Assembly (NCBI RefSeq): GCF_000023965.1
Contig: NC_013202.1
Location: 570,001 to 602,000 of the forward strand
Direction of reading: 5' to 3'
Origin: Halomicrobium mukohataei DSM 12286
GTDB lineage: Archaea > Halobacteriota > Halobacteria > Halobacteriales > Haloarculaceae
DNA length: 32,000 nucleotides
Numbering within the stretch: position 1 is the first letter of the stretch; each line of letters opens with the position of its first letter. This document shows positions 20,488 through 29,048 of the stretch, piece by piece. Under the pieces are notes generated by a model. The model saw only the letters and a program-made list of their open reading frames with translations. It was not told the origin of the DNA and made no database searches. The position numbers and the translations under genes are program-made.

Positions 20488-21446
20488 TCTTCGATCGGGA
20501 CAGTGTCGAGAGCCGTCCGGACCAGCCCCGCGCCGGTCTGTTCGGCGGTGTCGGTTCGGATGCGGTGGGGCAACACGACGCGTGCTTCCGCGCGCACGTC
20601 GTCGGGGACGACGTAGTCTCTGCCGTCCAGTACCGCGCGGGCCTGTGCCGCCCGCAAGAGCGCGATGCTCCCGCGCGGGCTCACGCCCAGTTGGCCGTGT
20701 TCGCGGGTGTAGCGTGCCAGCCGCGTCGCGTACTCGCGAAGCGGCGCTTCGATCGTCACGTCCGAGACCGTCCGCTGAGCCCGGCGAAACTCCTCGACGC
20801 TGGCGACCGGCGAGAGGCGCTCGATCGGGTGGTCGCTGACGACGCGAGCGAGCATGGCCGCCTCGTCGTCGGCGCTGGGGTAGCCGAGGTGGAGCTTCTT
20901 CATGAAGCGGTCCAGCTCCGCCATCGGGAGCGCGTATGTCCGGTTCTGCTCGACGGTGTTCTGGGTCGCGATGACGGTGAACGGATCTGGCACGTCCCGC
21001 GTATCCCCGTCGACCGTGACCTGCTCTTCTTCCATCGCTTCCAGCAGCGCCGACTGGGTCTTGGGCGGCGCGCGGTTGATCTCGTCGCCCAGGACGACGT
21101 TCGCGAAGATCGGTCCCTCCTGGAAGGTGAACGTCTCGGTCTGCTGGTTGTACACGTTGACGCCCGTCACGTCCGACGGCAACAGATCCGGCGTGAACTG
21201 GACGCGCTTGAAGCTACCGTCGAAGGAGGCCGCGACGGCCTTCGCCAGCATCGTCTTGCCGACGCCGGGAACGTCCTCCAGTAGGATATGGCCCCGCCCC
21301 AGCATCGCGGTCAGGATGTGCTCGATCTCCTCGTGGTGGCCGACGATGACCCGCTCGACGTTCTCGATGACCTGGGTCGCGACTCGGTTCGCCTCGCCGA
21401 GGGCAGAGTCGGAGTGGGACCCTCGTGATGTGTCGGTATCTGTCAT
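20484..21446 (-). CDS. MoxR-family AAA+ ATPase
   Basis: ATG at 21446. Walker A EDVPGVGKT, Walker B VLGDEINRAPPKTQSALLEAMEE, then VIATQNT and LDRF motifs typical of MoxR. Confidence 0.9.
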   Translation of the reverse strand: MTDTDTSRGSHSDSALGEANRVATQVIENVERVIVGHHEEIEHILTAMLGRGHILLEDVPGVGKTMLAKAVAASFDGSFKRVQFTPDLLPSDVTGVNVYNQQTETFTFQEGPIFANVVLGDEINRAPPKTQSALLEAMEEEQVTVDGDTRDVPDPFTVIATQNTVEQNRTYALPMAELDRFMKKLHLGYPSADDEAAMLARVVSDHPIERLSPVASVEEFRRAQRTVSDVTIEAPLREYATRLARYTREHGQLGVSPRGSIALLRAAQARAVLDGRDYVVPDDVRAEARVVLPHRIRTDTAEQTGAGLVRTALDTVPIEE

Positions 21447-21649
21447 TGTTGTCAGTGTCCACCGCAGGCGCGCTGTCACGGGACCACGCCCCGGCAGTGG
21501 CCCCGTCGGCGGACGGCCTGGGACTGCCGTCGCCGGGCGCGATGCCGGTCGTGGCCCCTCCTTAGGGATCAGCGCTTGTAATACTGCTGCCTGTTACCAC
21601 GACACGCATACGACCGCAGACAGACGACACGGTCCGCCAGACCGTCGAG

Positions 21650-21904
21650 CTACCACTCCTTGCAGTCGGGACAGACCAGCCCGTCCTCGCCCTGCCAGCG
21701 GTACGAAACCGAGGCCCCACACCGGCAGCAGGGCTCGCCGTCGGGCGACCAGGCCGCCGTCGTCACTGCCGGCTCGACGCCGTCCGGTGACACCCGACCG
21801 CCGTCGTCGCCCGCCTGCTCGTTCCCACTCGTCGACGACTCGTCTCGGGGCTCGTCGTCCGTGGCGTCGCCGACGAAGTCCGTCAGCGAGGCGTCGTCAC
21901 TCAT
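21650..21904 (-). CDS. small acidic protein with C-terminal zinc ribbon (84 aa)
   Basis: Acidic N-terminus followed by CCRCG...(17 aa)...CPDCKEW. The layout is that of conserved haloarchaeal small zinc-ribbon proteins. Confidence 0.55.
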   Translation of the reverse strand: MSDDASLTDFVGDATDDEPRDESSTSGNEQAGDDGGRVSPDGVEPAVTTAAWSPDGEPCCRCGASVSYRWQGEDGLVCPDCKEW

Positions 21905-21913
21905 ACCAACCCG

Positions 21914-22363
21914 TTGGGACGGGCGAACATTGGACCTGTCGGTGGGGACCGAACCGCGCCCGGACCCGCCGACAGCGATTTCGGCCCCGACGACCTCCGA
22001 CGAGACGTGCCCGCGACAGTACGTCGAGACGCACTGCTGGCCGCCCTCGCGTCGGCCGGACTGCTCGCGCTGTTGGTCGCCGAACGAGCGGTCGACGCGC
22101 TCACCGCCCCGGCGGCGATCGCCAGCGGCGTCGCGGTGGCGCTACTGGTCGAAGTCGCGTTCCTGCGATCGACGGCGGTCGCGCGCCTGTGGACGCGCCC
22201 GGCGATCCAGCTGGGCTCGGCGGGCGGGCTCCTCGCCGTTGGACTGGCCGGCTACGCGCTCGCCGGGCCACTCGTCGTGGCGGCGCTGTCCTGGGGACTG
22301 GTCACCTACTTCGCCCTGCTCTGTGTGCTCCTGGCGAGCGGTCGCCGTCCGACGACCGAGTGA
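21914..22363 (+). CDS. hypothetical membrane protein (start uncertain; alternative GTG at 22007)
   Basis: Three to four hydrophobic helices (LLAALASAGLLALLV, IASGVAVALLVEV, LGSAGGLLAVGLAGYAL, LVTYFALLCVLLA). No recognisable family. Confidence 0.45.
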   Translation: MGRANIGPVGGDRTAPGPADSDFGPDDLRRDVPATVRRDALLAALASAGLLALLVAERAVDALTAPAAIASGVAVALLVEVAFLRSTAVARLWTRPAIQLGSAGGLLAVGLAGYALAGPLVVAALSWGLVTYFALLCVLLASGRRPTTE

Positions 22364-22391
22364 CGGACGGCGGCGGCCGAAAGAGCTTTGT

Positions 22392-22410
22392 CGTGGTACC
22401 GGGTACCACG
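22392..22410. promoter_or_regulatory. perfect 9+9 palindrome CGTGGTACC-G-GGTACCACG 5 nt upstream of the micro-protein ATG
   Basis: Read directly from the sequence. The one-base spacer makes an RNA hairpin unlikely and fits a dimeric DNA-binding site. It would cover the expected transcription start of a leaderless or short-leader mRNA. Confidence 0.4.
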
Positions 22411-22414
22411 GGTG

Positions 22415-22534
22415 ATGATCGACGGCTCTACGTGCCCGAACTGCGGCGGCCACGTCTCCACGACCAACGGCACCGACTACGAGTGTGACGACTGCGGGAG
22501 CGAGTTCGACACCGCCGACCTCTTTCTGCCCTGA
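22415..22534 (+). CDS. 39-aa zinc-finger micro-protein (below the ORF-track length cut-off)
   Basis: ATG 22415 to TGA 22532-22534 encodes MIDGSTCPNCGGHVSTTNGTDYECDDCGSEFDTADLFLP. It has CPxCG plus CxxC motifs, as in haloarchaeal zinc-finger micro-proteins, and an acidic tail. Confidence 0.45.
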   Translation: MIDGSTCPNCGGHVSTTNGTDYECDDCGSEFDTADLFLP

Positions 22535-22567
22535 TCCCCGACAGTTTTGCCGACGCCCGACCAAGCG

Positions 22568-23062
22568 ATGAGCGATGGTCACGTTCGCCCCGCCGAACAC
22601 GACGATATCTCGGCGATACAACGCGTCGCCCGAGAAACCTGGCACGCCGCCTACGACCCCGTCCTCGGCCCCGAAGCCGTCGACGCGACGGTCGAGGAGT
22701 GGTACGCCGAGTCGGTCGTCGCCGACGGCATCGCGAACGACGCGACCGCCTACCTCGTCGCGGTCGACGACGGCGTCGTCGGGTACGCCTTCGGCGGCCA
22801 GATCGAAGCCGACCTCGCCGGCCTGTCGGCGATCTACGTCCAGCCCGACCGCTGGGGCGCGGGCATCGGACACCGACTGTTCGTCGCCCTCACCGACCGG
22901 CTCCGAGAGCGCGGCCCCGAACGGCTCCAGATCCGCGTGCTCGCGGCCAACGACCGAGCACGAACGTTCTACGAGCGCCACGGCGCGACCCTCGCCGACC
23001 GCCAGCAGATCACGCTCGCCGAGGTTCCTGTCGACAAAGTGACCTACGAACGACCGCTGTGA
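22568..23062 (+). CDS. GNAT family N-acetyltransferase
   Basis: ATG at 22568. Motif A is IYVQPDRWGAGIGHRLF (Q/R-x-x-G-x-G/A). The C-terminal ARTFYERHG motif is present. Confidence 0.8.
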   Translation: MSDGHVRPAEHDDISAIQRVARETWHAAYDPVLGPEAVDATVEEWYAESVVADGIANDATAYLVAVDDGVVGYAFGGQIEADLAGLSAIYVQPDRWGAGIGHRLFVALTDRLRERGPERLQIRVLAANDRARTFYERHGATLADRQQITLAEVPVDKVTYERPL

Positions 23063-23085
23063 GTCGCCGCGCGCTTTCGAAATCC

Positions 23086-23094
23086 TTTTTGATA
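23086..23094 (+). promoter_or_regulatory. TATA-like box for tRNA-Phe
   Basis: TTTTTGATA is centred about 28 nt upstream of tRNA position 1 (23119). Confidence 0.35.
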
Positions 23095-23118
23095 CCCTCG
23101 GCGTCGTCCCGAATGCGC

Positions 23119-23192
23119 GCCGCCTTAGCTCAGACTGGGAGAGCACTCGACTGAAGATCGGGCTGTCCCCGGTTCAAATCCGGGAGGCGGCA
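23119..23192 (+). tRNA. tRNA-Phe (anticodon GAA)
   Basis: Hand-folded cloverleaf. Acceptor GCCGCCT/AGGCGGC, D arm GCTC-AGACTGGGA-GAGC, anticodon arm CTCGA-CTGAAGA-TCGGG, variable loop CTGTC, T arm CCCGG-TTCAAAT-CCGGG, discriminator A. CCA is not encoded, and TTTT follows immediately. Confidence 0.95.
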
Positions 23193-23293
23193 TTTTCCTG
23201 CGACCGAAGGGAGCAGTGAAAATGCTCCCGAGCGGATTTGAACTAGACCGAGATTCTGCGAGCGGAGCGAGCAGGGTCTCGGGCGTAGTTCAC

Positions 23294-23310
23294 AATCCGG
23301 GAGGCGGCAT
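23294..23310 (+). repeat. direct repeat of the tRNA-Phe 3' end (att-like); partner copy at 23177-23193
   Basis: AATCCGGGAGGCGGCAT is identical (17/17) at 23177-23193 and 23294-23310. Similarity extends 5' (GTTCA-AATCC vs GTTCACAATCC) with a 1-nt indel. Confidence 0.6.
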
Positions 23311-23482: not shown

Positions 23483-24859
23483 ATGGACGCACTCTCGAAG
23501 CAAGTCTCGGGGCTCCGCGAGGAACGACACGACGAGCGAGAGCAACGAGACGAGTTAGAGGACGAGCTGGACGCGCGCGACGAGCGAGTCGACGAACTCG
23601 AAGCGGAAGTCGCGCGACTGGACGCACGAGCGGTGGTGAAAGAGGAGAGCGACTACGACGATGTCGACGCCGACGAGCACCGCAAGGAGATCGAAGCCAT
23701 CGCGCTGCAGCTCTTCGGCGGCTGGGCACACGAGTATCCCGACGGAAGCCGCGACCGCGGCGACTGGCACATGCTCCTACTCGGGGACCCCGGCTGTGGG
23801 AAGTCCACGTTCCTCCGCTACGTCGATCAGATCGCACCGCGGTCGACCTACGCCTCGGGGAAGGGTGCGACGGCGGCAGGCATGACCGCGGCGGCGGTCG
23901 CTGACGACTTCGGAGATACAGAATGGGGGCTGGAAGCCGGTGCGCTGGTGCTGGCCGACGGCGGGATCGCCTGCGTCGACGAGATCGACAAGATGCAGTC
24001 CGATGCAGTGTCCTCGATGCACGACGCTCTGGAGAGCCAGCAGGTCCACGTCAACAAGGCGGGGATCAACGCCACGCTGAACGCTCGCACCTCGTTACTG
24101 GCGGCAGGGAACCCGAAGAACGGCCGCTTCGAGCGCTACCGTCCGAAGGGCGAACAGATCGACATGGGGCCGACGCTCCTCTCCCGGTTCGACCTGATGT
24201 TCATGATGTCCGATCAGCCCGATCGGGAAGACGACGCCGAAGTCGTCGAGTACATGCTCCAGAGTCGGCAGGCTGCCGGTCGGCATACCCGTGGGGAGGA
24301 GCTGAGTGACGAGGAACAGCAACGGGTCGAACCGGCGATCGATCGAGCGGTGATGCGGGCCTACGTTGCTTACGCCAAGCAGACCTGCCGTCCGATCATC
24401 GAGGATGAGGAGGTTGCGGAGCGACTGAAGCAGTTCTTTGTCGAGTTCCGAGCGAGTGCTGGTGAACAAGATGACGATTCGCCGATTCCGCTGACGTTCA
24501 GGAAGGTCGAGGCCATACAGCGGCTGGCAGAGTCCAGTGCACGGGTTCGGCTTTCGGATATCGTGGAGATTGAGGATGTAGAGAGGGCAATTATGCTTGT
24601 GACGAAGTCGATGAAGCAGGTGGGGTACAATCCTGAGGAAGGTGAGTTTGATGCAGATATTATCGAGACAGGACAGTCGAAAAGTCAACGAGAACGGCGT
24701 GAGACAATTCTGGCTATTGTAGAGGAACTGGATGGGGCGACAGTGGAAGAGATTGCTCAGAGAGTGGAATTCGACCAACAGTTACTCAAGCACGATATTG
24801 AAATTCTGAAGGAGGCGGGAAGGATTCATCTAATGGACGGCAAGTTCCGGAAAGCGTAG
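23483..24859 (+). CDS. MCM-family AAA+ ATPase with C-terminal winged helix, lacking the MCM N-terminal (OB-fold/Zn-finger) domain; a short coiled coil precedes the ATPase (458 aa from ATG 23483)
   Basis: Walker A LLLGDPGCGKST, Walker B GIACVDEIDKM, sensor-1 LLAAGNP, Arg finger SRFDL, and GLEAGALVLADGG (MCM-specific). The C-terminal ILAIVEELDGATVEEIAQRV...EAGRIHLMDGKFRKA segment is wHTH-like. The N-terminus MDALSKQVSGLREERHDEREQRDELEDELDARDERVDELEAEVARLDA is coiled-coil-like. The listed ORF start at 23216 is Arg/Gly-rich and runs over the att repeat. Confidence 0.8.
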   Translation: MDALSKQVSGLREERHDEREQRDELEDELDARDERVDELEAEVARLDARAVVKEESDYDDVDADEHRKEIEAIALQLFGGWAHEYPDGSRDRGDWHMLLLGDPGCGKSTFLRYVDQIAPRSTYASGKGATAAGMTAAAVADDFGDTEWGLEAGALVLADGGIACVDEIDKMQSDAVSSMHDALESQQVHVNKAGINATLNARTSLLAAGNPKNGRFERYRPKGEQIDMGPTLLSRFDLMFMMSDQPDREDDAEVVEYMLQSRQAAGRHTRGEELSDEEQQRVEPAIDRAVMRAYVAYAKQTCRPIIEDEEVAERLKQFFVEFRASAGEQDDDSPIPLTFRKVEAIQRLAESSARVRLSDIVEIEDVERAIMLVTKSMKQVGYNPEEGEFDADIIETGQSKSQRERRETILAIVEELDGATVEEIAQRVEFDQQLLKHDIEILKEAGRIHLMDGKFRKA

Positions 24860-24891
24860 CAGGCAGTGTGATCGTACTATATCTGAGTTCC

Positions 24892-24897
24892 TTTTTT
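24892..24897 (+). terminator. oligo-T tract downstream of the MCM-like gene
   Basis: CCTTTTTTATT lies about 35 nt after the TAG stop. Oligo-T is the established archaeal intrinsic termination signal. Confidence 0.4.
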
Positions 24898-24935
24898 ATT
24901 GTGTCTTGGAATAGATCGCAGGGTGATAAGTTCTC

Positions 24936-24948
24936 TTAAGTATTATAT
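24936..24948 (+). promoter_or_regulatory. TATA box for the 619-aa ORF
   Basis: TTAAGTATTATAT is centred about 28 nt upstream of ATG 24972, spacing expected for a leaderless or very short-leader haloarchaeal mRNA. Confidence 0.45.
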
Positions 24949-24971
24949 GCGGTGTCCAATGTTTAGGAGAT

Positions 24972-26831
24972 ATGGAGCATAATTACGAACCAGTCAAACT
25001 AAAACGGATAGGTACAGGATCAAGTTTTCAATCAAGATATGACCTGACCCGGAATCGATTATCTAATAATAATATTGATTCTTTACAAGATGCTGTCGAA
25101 AAGTTGCGCAAGACTATCTCAAAAGCCGGATCATTAAATATCATAAAGGAATTGTCATTACACGAAACGATTCGTTCTGCGATATTGCATTCTCTAAATA
25201 TTGACACTGGAATCCCGCCAGCAATGGTGGAGTACCTGTTTGGCGTTTGTACAACTATCGAACCGACTTCAGGTAACACTGATATTGGGTTCTATGATGT
25301 TATAGATGCGCTCTCGCTTGTGGAGGATAGGCTTCGGTTTGAAAATTTGAAAAATCTGGATGATGCAGAGACAATCGAAGAAAAGCAACAATCATTTATA
25401 CAAATCCAATTGATGGAAAAAGAAATATCTACGGGTCCATTTGTACATGGTCGGCAAAGACGAGAATATGCTCGGAGAGTTCTGGGGAAGTGCGATAATT
25501 ATATTGTGGATATATTAGACATATCTGTGACAGACTCTATTCTGTCTGCCGATCTCTTGGGAGAAGTAATGGGGCAGCATATTCAGCAAACAATCCTACA
25601 GGCTCTACAAGGACTAATTCAAAAAGGAGCTCAATCAGACATCATCTCTCATTCTGAGGTTCTTAGTAAGCAAAAACCAGATAAAGAATTATTCCGTCTT
25701 GTATTGGAATACGATAGACAGAGGTTAGATCCAATCAATAATTCCGATGGCTTTTCTGAAGAGAAGGATGTCCTATTTGGTAATTTATCGTCCCATGTCA
25801 AAAAAGTAGGTATCGAAAAAGAAGCTGTGAAGCAAGCGCTGAATTCTAGTACAGTGCCATATGACACTTTCTTGGAAGAATTTGGAATATCGATTGGAGA
25901 ATACAAGAGTGATCCGGCAGATTTATCTGGTTCCATTAATAAATTTGATTATCCTTTTGACCATAATCCGTTACATGAATATCCAATTCTTGTTGATCGA
26001 GAGGGAAAAATATATCATGGACCTTCAAATTCGTTGTATTATTCTCTCTCAACAAGGCCCTATTACGAGCTTTTAGATTCAGAATATAAAGATGAAGCGG
26101 ATGAACTGATAGGGGAAGGGAACGAAATCTGGGTTCTTGAATGTCTGGACAGAATCTCAGACGAAAATGTGGAAATAATCCATAGTGCCGAATACGATTA
26201 CAAAGATGGAGAATCAGATTTTGTCTTGATATACGATGATACTTTAGTTGTACTTGAGTGTAAGACTAGAGGTCCAAAATTGGAGACAAGGAAAGGCCCA
26301 TTCGGGGATTTTAATGAGATTCAAGCAAATCTCTCAGATATTATTTCTGGTCCATATGAGCAGGCTACGAAACTGATTAATGCGATTCGAGAAGGTGAAA
26401 TAGACGAAATCAAAACTGGCTATGGGACAAGACAGTTGTCGGATGATGATTTTGACTCATATATTCCCGGAGTGATCTTAGCCCGTTCTCTCAACGCAGT
26501 TGGAACTACATTATACCCCGACGCTGTAGAGTTCAATAATGAGCTTCCATTTGTCACTGATTTATACAGTTTTCAAACAATATGTCGGCATGTCCAAGGG
26601 AGCAGTGGATTTTTGGATTATCTCGAACGTCGAGTGGCCGTAGCAGAGCAGGGACGGGTGTTTAGCGTAGACGAACTGGACTACGTCGGTGCATACCTTG
26701 ATAGCAATCTTTCATTTCCTGAGGCACCATCAGAATGCCTGATCGATATTATCGATTCAGGTAGTCATCTCGACCGGACTTACGAATCGGATATCGATGG
26801 GCTACCCAATGAAGATATTCCTCGCCTTTAA
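24972..26831 (+). CDS. low-GC orphan protein (619 aa) with a C-terminal PD-(D/E)xK nuclease-fold signature
   Basis: It is the only long ORF in the AT-rich segment and has an acidic, haloadapted composition. The motif string is E385 (GNEIWVLE) ... D416 (GESDFVLIY) ... E429-C-K431 (LVVLECKTR) ... Q (EIQ / YEQATK), codons at 26124, 26217 and 26256-26264. The N-terminal ~370 aa are helical and unrecognised. Confidence 0.8.
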   Translation: MEHNYEPVKLKRIGTGSSFQSRYDLTRNRLSNNNIDSLQDAVEKLRKTISKAGSLNIIKELSLHETIRSAILHSLNIDTGIPPAMVEYLFGVCTTIEPTSGNTDIGFYDVIDALSLVEDRLRFENLKNLDDAETIEEKQQSFIQIQLMEKEISTGPFVHGRQRREYARRVLGKCDNYIVDILDISVTDSILSADLLGEVMGQHIQQTILQALQGLIQKGAQSDIISHSEVLSKQKPDKELFRLVLEYDRQRLDPINNSDGFSEEKDVLFGNLSSHVKKVGIEKEAVKQALNSSTVPYDTFLEEFGISIGEYKSDPADLSGSINKFDYPFDHNPLHEYPILVDREGKIYHGPSNSLYYSLSTRPYYELLDSEYKDEADELIGEGNEIWVLECLDRISDENVEIIHSAEYDYKDGESDFVLIYDDTLVVLECKTRGPKLETRKGPFGDFNEIQANLSDIISGPYEQATKLINAIREGEIDEIKTGYGTRQLSDDDFDSYIPGVILARSLNAVGTTLYPDAVEFNNELPFVTDLYSFQTICRHVQGSSGFLDYLERRVAVAEQGRVFSVDELDYVGAYLDSNLSFPEAPSECLIDIIDSGSHLDRTYESDIDGLPNEDIPRL

Positions 26832-27063
26832 ACGTCGATATTAGTACTGCAGTTTTGTCCCAGTTCATCAAGAACCACGACACGCGACCTGCCATATCGC
26901 GATAGAGCCCCTCCCTCGAACCCAGACGGTGATTGCTGCTGTCGCAGTGCGTACTGCGAGCGATCCATCCGGTCAAACGCATCGGTTCCGCGCACGTCGG
27001 CGGTCCTACGACCGCCGGCCACGAGCGAAGTTTGTATGACGGACGGCCGAAAAGGGACGCGTA

Positions 27064-28437
27064 ATGGGATCGCCGAACGTCTTGCTCGTCGTGCTCGATG
27101 CGACCAGGAAGGACCACCTCTCGTGTTACGGTTACGACCGGCCGACGACGCCGGAGCTGGACGCGGTGGCCCAGGCCGGGACCCGCTACGAGCAGGCGAT
27201 CGCGCCGGCACCGTGGACGCCGCCCTCCCACGCGTCGATGTTCACGGGTCGATATCCGTCCGGGCACGGGAGTTTCGGCACGCAGCCGCTGGGAGAGTAC
27301 GACGGGGCGACCGTCGCCGAGTTGCTCTCGGCGGCGGGGTACGCGACGTTCGGGTTCAGCAACTCCCACCACACCAGCATCGAGCAGGAGTTCGACCGCG
27401 GATTCGACTACTACCACGACATCCTCGCGTTGCCGCGGTTCATGGACACGATGTACGAGCCCAGCCTGGATTTCCTCCGGTTTCTCCCGCGGTACTTCCG
27501 GGACGGCTACGACATCTCGGACTTCCAGCGGCGCAAGCTCGAAACGCAGGTTCGGCGAGCCGACGGCCCCTTCTTCGGGTTCATCAACTTCAACGCGACA
27601 CACGCGCCCTACAGGCCACCCGAGGAGTTCAGAGCGCCGTTCGAGGAGCGCTTCGACGACTGGGACGCGGTCGACGAGACGGCGGCCCGGAAGGTCGGCG
27701 ACGACGAGGGATACGAGTACATCCTGGGCGACGTGACGATGTCGCCGACCGAGTGGGAGCTCGTGGAGTGCTGGTACGACGCCGAGATCAGGTACGTGGA
27801 CGCGCTGCTGGGCGAGCTGTTCGACTGTCTGCGACGGCAGGGGGTCTACGACGACACGCTCGTCGTCGTCACCGCGGACCACGGCGAGCACTTCGGCGAG
27901 CACGGGCTGGCCTACCACCAGTTTTCGCTGTTCGAGGAGCTGCTCAACGTCCCGCTGCTGGTCAAGTGGCCCGAGGGCGACCGGCCGTCGCCGGCTCCCG
28001 GGACGGTGTCGGACCGGCTCGTGTCGCTGGTCGATCTCGTCCCGACGATCTGTGAGTGGGCCGGCGTCGCGGTGCCAGACGAGGTCGACGGCCGGGCACT
28101 GACCGGCGACGACGACCGCGACGCGGTCTTCGCGGAGTACGACCGGCCGTATCCGCCGCTGCGCGAGCGGCTCCAGCAGTACGACAGCTTCGAAGCCTAC
28201 GACAGGGGCTTGCAGGCGGTCCGGACCGAGACGCACAAGCTGATCCGACCGACAGTCGGCGAAGCGACGCTGTATCGCCTGACCGGCGACGGCGAGGTCG
28301 AGGTCTCCGACGACGAGCGCGAGGCGGCACTGGCCCAGCGTCTGGACGAGACGCTCGAACCGCTCCCCGATACGAGTCGAACCACGGAGCTGGACGATCA
28401 CGTCAGCGATCACCTGGAGAAGATGGGGTACCTGTGA
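27064..28437 (+). CDS. sulfatase-family (alkaline-phosphatase superfamily) protein
   Basis: N-terminal metal-ligand motif LLVVLDATRKDHL, active-site region WTPPSHASMFTGRYP, and later TADHGEHFGEHG. 457 aa with no signal peptide. Confidence 0.85.
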   Translation: MGSPNVLLVVLDATRKDHLSCYGYDRPTTPELDAVAQAGTRYEQAIAPAPWTPPSHASMFTGRYPSGHGSFGTQPLGEYDGATVAELLSAAGYATFGFSNSHHTSIEQEFDRGFDYYHDILALPRFMDTMYEPSLDFLRFLPRYFRDGYDISDFQRRKLETQVRRADGPFFGFINFNATHAPYRPPEEFRAPFEERFDDWDAVDETAARKVGDDEGYEYILGDVTMSPTEWELVECWYDAEIRYVDALLGELFDCLRRQGVYDDTLVVVTADHGEHFGEHGLAYHQFSLFEELLNVPLLVKWPEGDRPSPAPGTVSDRLVSLVDLVPTICEWAGVAVPDEVDGRALTGDDDRDAVFAEYDRPYPPLRERLQQYDSFEAYDRGLQAVRTETHKLIRPTVGEATLYRLTGDGEVEVSDDEREAALAQRLDETLEPLPDTSRTTELDDHVSDHLEKMGYL

Positions 28438-28449
28438 GGGCGGGCGGTG

Positions 28450-28962
28450 TCAGTAGTCCCGGACCGCGGCGACGATCCCCGCGGTCTGGCCGACGCCAGC
28501 GACGGCGAGGCCGGCGACCAGCACCAGGGGATCACCGCTCACGACGGTCCCCGCGACGTAGACGATCGCGCCGAGAACGCTCAGGACCGCACCGCCCGTG
28601 TACGCCAGCGGCGAGCGGTCGACGTGGCGGCCCGTGTAGGCCAGTCCGGCGGCGGGGACGAGCAGCCAGCCGACGACGGTGAGCCACAGCAGCGACGACG
28701 CGGGCGGCGTCTGCAAGAGACCGGTCGTCCCGAGTAGAGTGAGCGCGAGCCCGACGAGCAAGACGAGTCGCCACGCGCGCAAGACGCCGCGGCGCATCTC
28801 CGACCACGAGAGCACGGTGAAGGCGACGAGGACGGCGTCCATCACCAGGTGAGCGATCAGGACCGTCCGAAGCGCCAGCACGTCCAGATGTGCGGCGATC
28901 GCGAACGTCCAGGCCAGCGGCACGAGGACGACGGGACCGTTCTCGCGGAGGCGACGAAGCAT
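28450..28962 (-). CDS. hypothetical integral membrane protein (170 aa from ATG 28962)
   Basis: Five to six hydrophobic helices. The listed upstream extension to 29055 overlaps the divergent oxidoreductase start. Confidence 0.5.
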   Translation of the reverse strand: MLRRLRENGPVVLVPLAWTFAIAAHLDVLALRTVLIAHLVMDAVLVAFTVLSWSEMRRGVLRAWRLVLLVGLALTLLGTTGLLQTPPASSLLWLTVVGWLLVPAAGLAYTGRHVDRSPLAYTGGAVLSVLGAIVYVAGTVVSGDPLVLVAGLAVAGVGQTAGIVAAVRDY

Positions 28963-29048
28963 ACAGAGTGTATTGTGACCGTCCCACAAGAACGTGGTGT
29001 GACACCGGCGCGCACAATCCTTTTGCCGTCCCGCACTGATGATCGAGT

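Follow-up and report, generated by a model that had tools for sequence, protein, structure and literature searches.

On its sequence relationships and chromosomal setting, a 619-residue protein encoded on the chromosome of the haloarchaeon Halomicrobium mukohataei DSM 12286 may well be a single-polypeptide defence nuclease, belonging to a haloarchaeal family that forms a distant branch of the GapS1 (GAPS1) lineage. Its gene occupies positions 24972–26831 (+ strand) of the window, by which we mean the whole 32,000-nucleotide (nt) stretch of DNA that was analysed (contig NC_013202.1, positions 570,001 to 602,000 of the forward strand), and is followed by a host sulfatase gene and preceded by an MCM gene. 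A NERD annotation of the gene at the domain level already existed. Three things are new: a relationship to GapS1, a haloarchaeal family of ∼600 amino acids (aa) with an unrecognised helical domain, and a chromosomal hotspot with four alternative cargo alleles.

GAPS1 is a single-protein system that responds to the T7 capsid protein and leads to dormancy; mutants with D313A or K328A no longer defend. Protection is known for the Vibrio and E. coli GAPS1, and the system has been reported from bacteria only (Mahata et al., bioRxiv 10.1101/2023.03.28.534373). The gene of a protective E. coli GAPS1 homologue, given as a 5′ fragment in Table S3 of that paper, served as the seed; the full E. coli gene, annotated gapS1, was located from the fragment, and 45 GapS1 proteins were collected, 23 of which were aligned. 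Another E. coli 5′ fragment from the same table gave no match. When the 23-sequence GapS1 profile was compared by hhalign with a profile of 57 diverse members of the haloarchaeal family (mean column identity 20%), the two aligned over 258 columns with a probability of 96.5% and an E value of 9.7e-10. Residues 276–560 of the 619-aa protein are placed in register with residues 177–470 of GapS1, and E385, D416, E429-x-K431 and Q464 line up with the conserved E, D, D-x-K and Q of GapS1. This profile alignment shows aa ∼276–560 to be homologous to the nuclease-containing module of GapS1. Consistently, the NCBIfam model antiphage_GapS1 (NF047931), whose whole-protein cut-off is 320 bits, gave sub-threshold matches in 30 of the 57 members (best E 3.3e-10; the best score noticed for one relative, P0102, was 30.5 bits), and no match to the 619-aa protein itself at E up to 0.1.

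The two proteins share more than the catalytic core. Each is one protein with a PD-(D/E)xK domain towards its C-terminus, the homology spans a pre-nuclease element, the nuclease core and a C-terminal extension (to about aa 560), and both travel as cargo in mobile islands. They differ in motif III, which reads E-C-K in the 619-aa protein but D-S-K in the E. coli GapS1 used here, and in their hosts and composition, the present family being haloarchaeal and acidic whereas GAPS1 is reported from bacteria only. A further difference is that the N-terminal ∼275 aa of the 619-aa protein are not demonstrably related to GapS1.

The C-terminal core is supported by modelling and profile matches as a NERD-type restriction-endonuclease-fold (PD-(D/E)xK) domain with an α-β-β-β-α arrangement. 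Pfam NERD (PF08378) matches aa 381–473 at 23.2 bits against a gathering cut-off of 22.1, covering profile positions 2–92 of 111, and is matched by all eight close members. The catalytic motifs are GNEIWVLE (E385), GESDFVLIY (D416) and VVLECKTR (E429 and K431). Across the 57-member alignment E385, D416, K431 and Q464 are invariant, and conservation reaches at least 90% at N332, G381, E429, G442, P526, Y550, R554, D567, E568 and D570. An AlphaFold model built with the same 57 sequences reached a predicted local distance difference test score (pLDDT) of 87.7 and a predicted template-modelling score of 0.89; it replaced a model made with only eight close homologues, which had a pLDDT of 67 and weak Foldseek matches. 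E385 is carried by a helix (aa 373–395), D416 and the E429/K431 pair by the second and third of three strands (aa 401–408, 413–420 and 424–431), and Q464 by a following helix (aa 447–473). The α-β-β-β layout that the first-pass annotation had proposed for E385, D416, E429 and K431 is therefore borne out by the model, and the alignment shows these residues to be conserved among homologues, the lack of which it had named as a refutation.

Comparisons with solved structures point to the same fold. Searched against the Protein Data Bank (PDB), the family profile matched the nuclease domain of Can2 at E 2.2e-7, with GxxxE...D...ECK aligned, and the PADLOC models for CARF-PD(D/E)xK nucleases matched 23 of the 57 members. 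The nuclease-type Foldseek matches of the 57-sequence model were PD-(D/E)xK proteins without exception, none better than E 1e-3; they include Can2, Nt.BspD6I, the R.BspD6I small subunit, the R2 endonuclease, VC1899, Cdn1 and Bax1, and are headed by the defence protein Upx (probability 0.99, E 2.4e-3, query template-modelling (TM) score 0.32). Against viral structures, the Foldseek matches were all weak and of the PD-(D/E)xK or NERD kind, none of them to an analogue of the full length. Of the two patterns initially suggested for the core, NERD and Shedu/DUF4263, only NERD stands, being above the Pfam cut-off; no Shedu/DUF4263 model in Pfam or PADLOC matched the 619-aa protein or its 57 relatives. 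Taken together, the alignments show that the nuclease module of the C-terminal ∼285 residues retains a complete and conserved metal-binding and catalytic set, from which nuclease activity is predicted.

The protein is divided by the model and the alignment into five consecutive parts. The all-helical N-terminal region (aa 22–304; window 25035–25883, +) was delimited from the model, conservation and library scans. It is followed by the pre-nuclease element (aa 305–372; 25884–26087, +), which lies inside the GapS1-homologous segment and contains small β elements (aa 305–349) around a KFDYPFDHNPxH motif that includes N332. Then come the NERD-type core (aa 373–475; 26088–26396, +) and a conserved C-terminal extension (aa 476–580; 26397–26711, +), modelled as β/α structure to ∼aa 578 and bearing the near-invariant P526, Y550, R554 and an S-x-DExDY motif (D567, E568 and D570). 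The last part is a poorly conserved acidic tail (aa 581–619; 26712–26828, +), with low model confidence over its last ∼20 residues.

The helical region is proposed to be a sensor or regulatory domain. No Pfam, NCBIfam, PHROGs or PADLOC model matched the first ∼370 aa, which had been set apart as unrecognised; an unrecognised N-terminal region does remain, but its extent shrinks to ∼275 aa because the GapS1 homology begins near residue 276. It is the fastest-evolving folded part of the family (18.5% mean pairwise identity versus ∼30% for the C-terminal module). The closest relatives mostly start with a C2H2-like zinc finger, CxxCGxxFxTLTRLRLHxxxC (P0002–P0004, P0006, P0007 and P0009); the 619-aa protein has no zinc finger, and no remnant of one was found 5′ of its ATG. 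Instead of the C2H2 finger, a CxxC...CxxC pattern that may be a zinc ribbon occurs in the more distant members P0011, P0013, P0014 and P0017. A paralogue from Halomicrobium sp. LC1Hm (see below) has neither motif, like the 619-aa protein.

The first-pass annotation had called the gene an orphan, a label that does not hold. RefSeq contains an identical protein named 'NERD domain-containing protein [Halomicrobium]', the identical protein occurs in several Halomicrobium assemblies, and seven relatives at 38–44% identity were found in metagenomes. Among 1.84 billion cluster representatives, a profile search retrieved 779 at E ≤ 1e-3, 154 at 1e-10 and 35 at 1e-30; their best-conserved part is the C-terminal ∼300 residues, and the better-scoring relatives equal the query in acidity. 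By tblastn, members were located on megaplasmids of Halobaculum, Halalkaliarchaeum and Halomontanus, where they are annotated 'hypothetical protein'. A scan of GTDB species genomes with motifs of the close family returned a single locus, in Natrialba chahannaoensis.

The open reading frame (ORF), which starts with ATG and ends with TAA as earlier described, is a real, intact and salt-adapted gene. At its local base composition a stop would be expected every ∼15 codons, or ∼42 times in 619; the probability of its being open by chance is 7.6e-20, and each of the other five frames contains 22–58 stops over the same stretch. Its G+C content (GC) is 0.397, and 0.33 at third codon positions (GC3) versus 0.86–0.91 in the neighbouring host sulfatase, GNAT and oxidoreductase genes. 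The AT-rich patch around it is sharply bounded, at ∼0.38–0.40 GC versus ∼0.67 on either side, and the composition is clearly foreign to the chromosome. The protein nonetheless resembles those of the host in acidity (pI 4.52, with 17.9% D+E and 9.5% K+R; host proteins pI 4.35–4.70), with a raised lysine content (4.7% versus 0.6–1.5% in host proteins) that AT-rich codons would give. The initial judgements that the ORF is very likely real, and that it is D/E-rich and haloadapted despite its low GC, are thus upheld. A TATA-box-like hexamer, TTATAT, lies at 24943–24948 (+), centred ∼27 nt 5′ of the ATG, the spacing expected of a haloarchaeal TATA box for a leaderless mRNA; it would fit an archaeal promoter driving such a transcript of the 619-aa gene. 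Over the 17 kb compared, the window is the same at every base as the Halomicrobium chromosome of GenBank CP045142.1. In the GC-rich flanks, several ORFs of 300–550 aa, among them one at 26749–28413 (−), run antisense to the sulfatase and neighbouring genes or out of frame with them; they are rich in Arg and Pro, and we regard them as by-products of the ∼67% GC rather than as genes.

The chromosomal position of the gene was compared among strains. The nearest relatives of the MCM protein encoded upstream are the 681-aa MCMs of other Halomicrobium strains (82–85% identity), which led to three syntenic loci: L022 (H. mukohataei GCA_012726095.1), L023 (a metagenomic relative) and L024 (Halomicrobium sp. 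LC1Hm). The order GNAT, tRNA-Phe, coiled-coil ORF, MCM, cargo, sulfatase is kept in all four genomes. The flanks are 95% identical (window 21000–23193 and 26855–29000, compared with L022 and L023), and MCM is about 87.5% identical. Homology of the window to the three other genomes breaks off immediately behind the stop codon of MCM and returns at GTTCATCAAGAACCACGACACG, ∼30 nt past the ORF stop, which delimits a replaceable cassette of ∼2 kb (∼24862–26860). Its cargo is the NERD/GapS1-like gene in the window; a 379-aa protein with an Mrr_cat endonuclease domain (Pfam E 3e-7), on the opposite strand, in L022; a 367-aa protein of unassigned family in L023; and two proteins in L024, one of 332 aa and one of 601 aa that is encoded on the opposite strand and belongs to the family of the 619-aa protein. 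The 601-aa paralogue is a full-length member (hhalign E 4e-94) that shares 22% identity with the 619-aa protein and keeps the catalytic residues. All cargo alleles are low in GC (0.40–0.43). The slot between MCM and sulfatase therefore shows cargo exchange of the defence-hotspot type, the same flanks enclosing different cargo. The 332-aa protein of LC1Hm (L024 10096–11094) has a hydrophobic N-terminal segment followed by a Cys, lipobox-like by eye, and a weak match to Peptidase_M10.

The left frame of the slot is a deletion-scarred MCM gene (23483–24859, +; 458 aa), recognised by domain scan and strain comparison. About 1.25 kb present in the sister strains (L022 9461–10715) are missing from it, so that the first ∼48 codons of the upstream coiled-coil ORF are joined to the AAA+, lid and winged-helix part, and the MCM_N and OB domains are gone. 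The LC1Hm copy of MCM is independently shortened, to 327 aa. The right frame is the host sulfatase gene (27064–28437, +), ∼95% identical between strains. Over the last ∼500 nt of MCM, GC drops gradually ahead of the variable cargo in all four strains (window 24350–24860; L022 11550–12000; L023 8400–8890; L024 7650–7985). A recent recombination joint at this drop was rejected, L022, L023 and L024 declining alike; the conserved low-GC 3′ end of MCM may instead be the left homology arm for cassette exchange. A 17-nt repeat at 24656 and 26745 was treated as chance.

At its left edge the island adjoins a tRNA-Phe (GAA) gene (23119–23192, +), whose 3′ end is duplicated at 23288–23310 (+; 17 nt exact at 23294–23310, ∼23 nt with two mismatches). 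A 94-nt insert between the tRNA and its copy is absent from both sister genomes compared (L022 and L023), and the duplication with its insert reads as an attachment-site (att) scar of past integrations. No tRNA 3′-end repeat was found at the right border of the island, which is bounded by strain comparison because att sites cannot delimit it. Within the insert, an inversely oriented segment (23218–23243) looks like the T-arm and acceptor end of another tRNA. Folding of the segment containing the duplication (23193–23310) is far stronger than that of shuffled sequences (z = −5.2).

The settings of other members were compared at about a dozen loci. Tyrosine integrases lie within 10 kb of members in L001, L003, L010, L019 and L020. 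Genes near members also encode a KAP NTPase, an Eco57I-type methylase, AbiEi, STAND/NACHT NTPases and toxins of the PIN and HigB kinds, and no conserved partner gene was found across the contexts examined. A ∼336-aa tyrosine integrase (Phage_int_SAM_1 plus Phage_integrase) recurs beside members on unrelated contigs (L010 8450–9463 and 16151–17161; L019 817–1827; L020 711–1724), which suggests a shared type of small integrative island as the carrier. On two haloarchaeal megaplasmids (L012 9190–15024 and L013 9190–15035), three hypothetical genes and one for a DEAD/DEAH helicase of ∼950 aa come after the member in identical arrangement; the four-gene block, which was not seen in the other contexts examined, may be a linked module or a multi-gene system of its own.

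The same loci bear on where the gene came from. GC is below that of the flanks in 12 of 12 family genes examined. Since all these members and all the cargo alleles are low in GC, the low GC looks like a trait of this mobile gene pool and does not point to one donor. No nanohaloarchaeal or halovirus donor was found, and a tblastn search of 50,697 phage records gave no match. The earlier proposal that the gene was acquired from a low-GC halophilic donor is accordingly not borne out, and the evidence supports its belonging to an AT-rich mobile gene pool of haloarchaea rather than its descent from a particular donor.

These data can be assembled into a model of action. The helical domain would hold the nuclease inactive until a halovirus component is recognised; the Mg2+-dependent nuclease would then cut nucleic acid with little sequence specificity, and cleavage would halt virus replication through growth arrest or through abortive infection or dormancy. 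The substrate could be DNA or RNA, given that, among the relatives, Can2 was crystallised with single-stranded DNA bound (a structure among the Foldseek matches) and the NERD nuclease ZwsA, an RNA-phage defence protein, cuts phage RNA (bioRxiv 10.64898/2026.04.06.716636). The original idea of a nuclease effector with a novel sensor is strengthened by the GapS1 profile homology and the hotspot context, and both the nuclease fold and the unrecognised helical domain stand; the sensor role is one that we infer. A more specific reading, which we hold tentatively, is that the protein represents an archaeal GapS1 branch, that its helical domain is a new sensor for a halovirus or invader protein, and that the MCM–sulfatase slot is a defence hotspot exchanging single-gene nuclease cassettes through its conserved flanks. 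If so, the two paralogues at 22% identity would be alternative specificities at one locus.

Several observations weigh against assigning the protein to GapS1-like defence. Taken alone, it matches GapS1 at a blastp E of 0.029, below significance, and a shallow eight-sequence profile gives E 0.012; because both are weak, the link to GapS1 is transitive, by way of the family at large. A collinear alignment of the N-terminal parts with those of GapS1 extends over 158 columns at P 0.06 and an hhalign probability of 0.9%, so that relatedness there is not demonstrable and the GapS1 trigger is not transferable. Both the absence of the zinc finger found in most of the closest relatives and the N-terminal domain, the most divergent in the close subgroup (34% versus 48%), could mean altered or reduced function. 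The defence-like character of the neighbourhoods is a by-eye judgement on the dozen or so loci, and some members adjoin replication genes, which are MCM in the present case and PolB with Cdc6 in L014.

Other characterised nucleases resemble the 619-aa protein in part. ZwsA has the same E...D...ExK set, mutated there as E535, D567, E580 and K582 (bioRxiv 10.64898/2026.04.06.716636), and is likewise a stand-alone multidomain effector, but none of the further domains described there was detected in the 619-aa protein. Can2/Card1 (PDB 7bdv and 8q3z) provide the best sequence match to a solved structure, the E of 2.2e-7 given above, and recur among the Foldseek and PADLOC matches. They belong to type III CRISPR signalling, however, and the 619-aa protein lacks the cyclic-oligoadenylate-sensing CARF domain, has an all-helical N-terminal region in its place and is encoded with no CRISPR genes nearby. 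The top structural match is Upx (PDB 9wuf), a defence nuclease that senses terminase as a single protein and is reported from archaea as well as bacteria (PMC13099982, PMC13601566). Its C-terminal PD-(D/E)xK core with D...ExK is likewise preceded by a large sensor region, a putative one in the 619-aa protein. It differs in having 1,272 aa and three domains, two of them nuclease (PMC13099982), against a single nuclease core here; its query TM score reaches only 0.32, and it shows no sequence-level match to the 619-aa protein.

The rival explanations rank in the order of a restriction-type nuclease, a nuclease of an MCM-bearing element, and a toxin or relic. According to the first, which is unlikely, the protein is a stand-alone restriction-type endonuclease, either type IV-like or a solitary type II or nicking enzyme, whose helical domain would read DNA sequence or modification and which would cut foreign DNA constitutively with no protein trigger. 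A type IV-like (Mrr_cat) protein does occupy the same slot in the sister strain L022, but neither Mrr_cat nor any other restriction-enzyme family in Pfam matches the 619-aa protein. No methyltransferase gene adjoins it in the window, as would fit a modification-dependent enzyme, and one homologue stands beside the Eco57I-type methylase. The Foldseek matches to Nt.BspD6I, the R.BspD6I small subunit, EcoT38I and McrBC, which also favour such an enzyme, are weak, with query TM scores of 0.12–0.18 and E above 0.006. The core is closest to Can2/Card1 and NERD domains, regarded as non-specific allosteric effector nucleases, and the only characterised homologue, GapS1, is triggered by a protein.

Still less probable is a housekeeping role, in which the nuclease would act with the MCM helicase in replication, recombination or maintenance of a plasmid or provirus integrated at tRNA-Phe. 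The gene begins 112 nt 3′ of MCM on the same strand, in an island with att-like scars beside the tRNA, integrases often adjoin members, and PolB and Cdc6 genes are the neighbours of one distant member carried by an archaeal mobile element. Yet sister strains have unrelated genes in the slot behind MCM, the LC1Hm paralogue is on the opposite strand, and the nuclease gene is intact next to an MCM that is a deletion chimera without N-terminal and OB domains; outside the Halomicrobium locus, no MCM gene was present in the homologue contexts examined. Equally improbable is an addiction-type toxin of the island or a drifting relic that has lost its sensor and has no current cellular role: the missing zinc finger without an upstream remnant, the unusually divergent N-terminal domain and the degraded island (truncated MCM, att scars, no integrase) would suit it, but 619 codons stay open in AT-rich DNA (P 7.6e-20), every family-invariant residue is kept, the predicted structure is well folded (pLDDT 87.7), the spacing between a TATA-like element and the ATG is right, the identical protein recurs in several Halomicrobium assemblies, and no conserved antitoxin-like partner was found.

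The defence-nuclease reading overturns no current ideas and is a solid lead rather than a surprise. To our knowledge, few haloarchaeal innate antiviral systems have been tested so far. The four-allele hotspot supplies near-isogenic strains that differ mainly in the cassette, among them Halomicrobium sp. LC1Hm, which we take to be the cultured host of a nanohaloarchaeal symbiont, and the locus is a template for finding more archaeal defence genes by hotspot comparison. A salt-adapted family of ∼600 aa in which the GapS1 nuclease module is joined to an N-terminal domain of another kind would widen this defence lineage to include Archaea, and would allow a natural comparison of one effector wired to different sensors.

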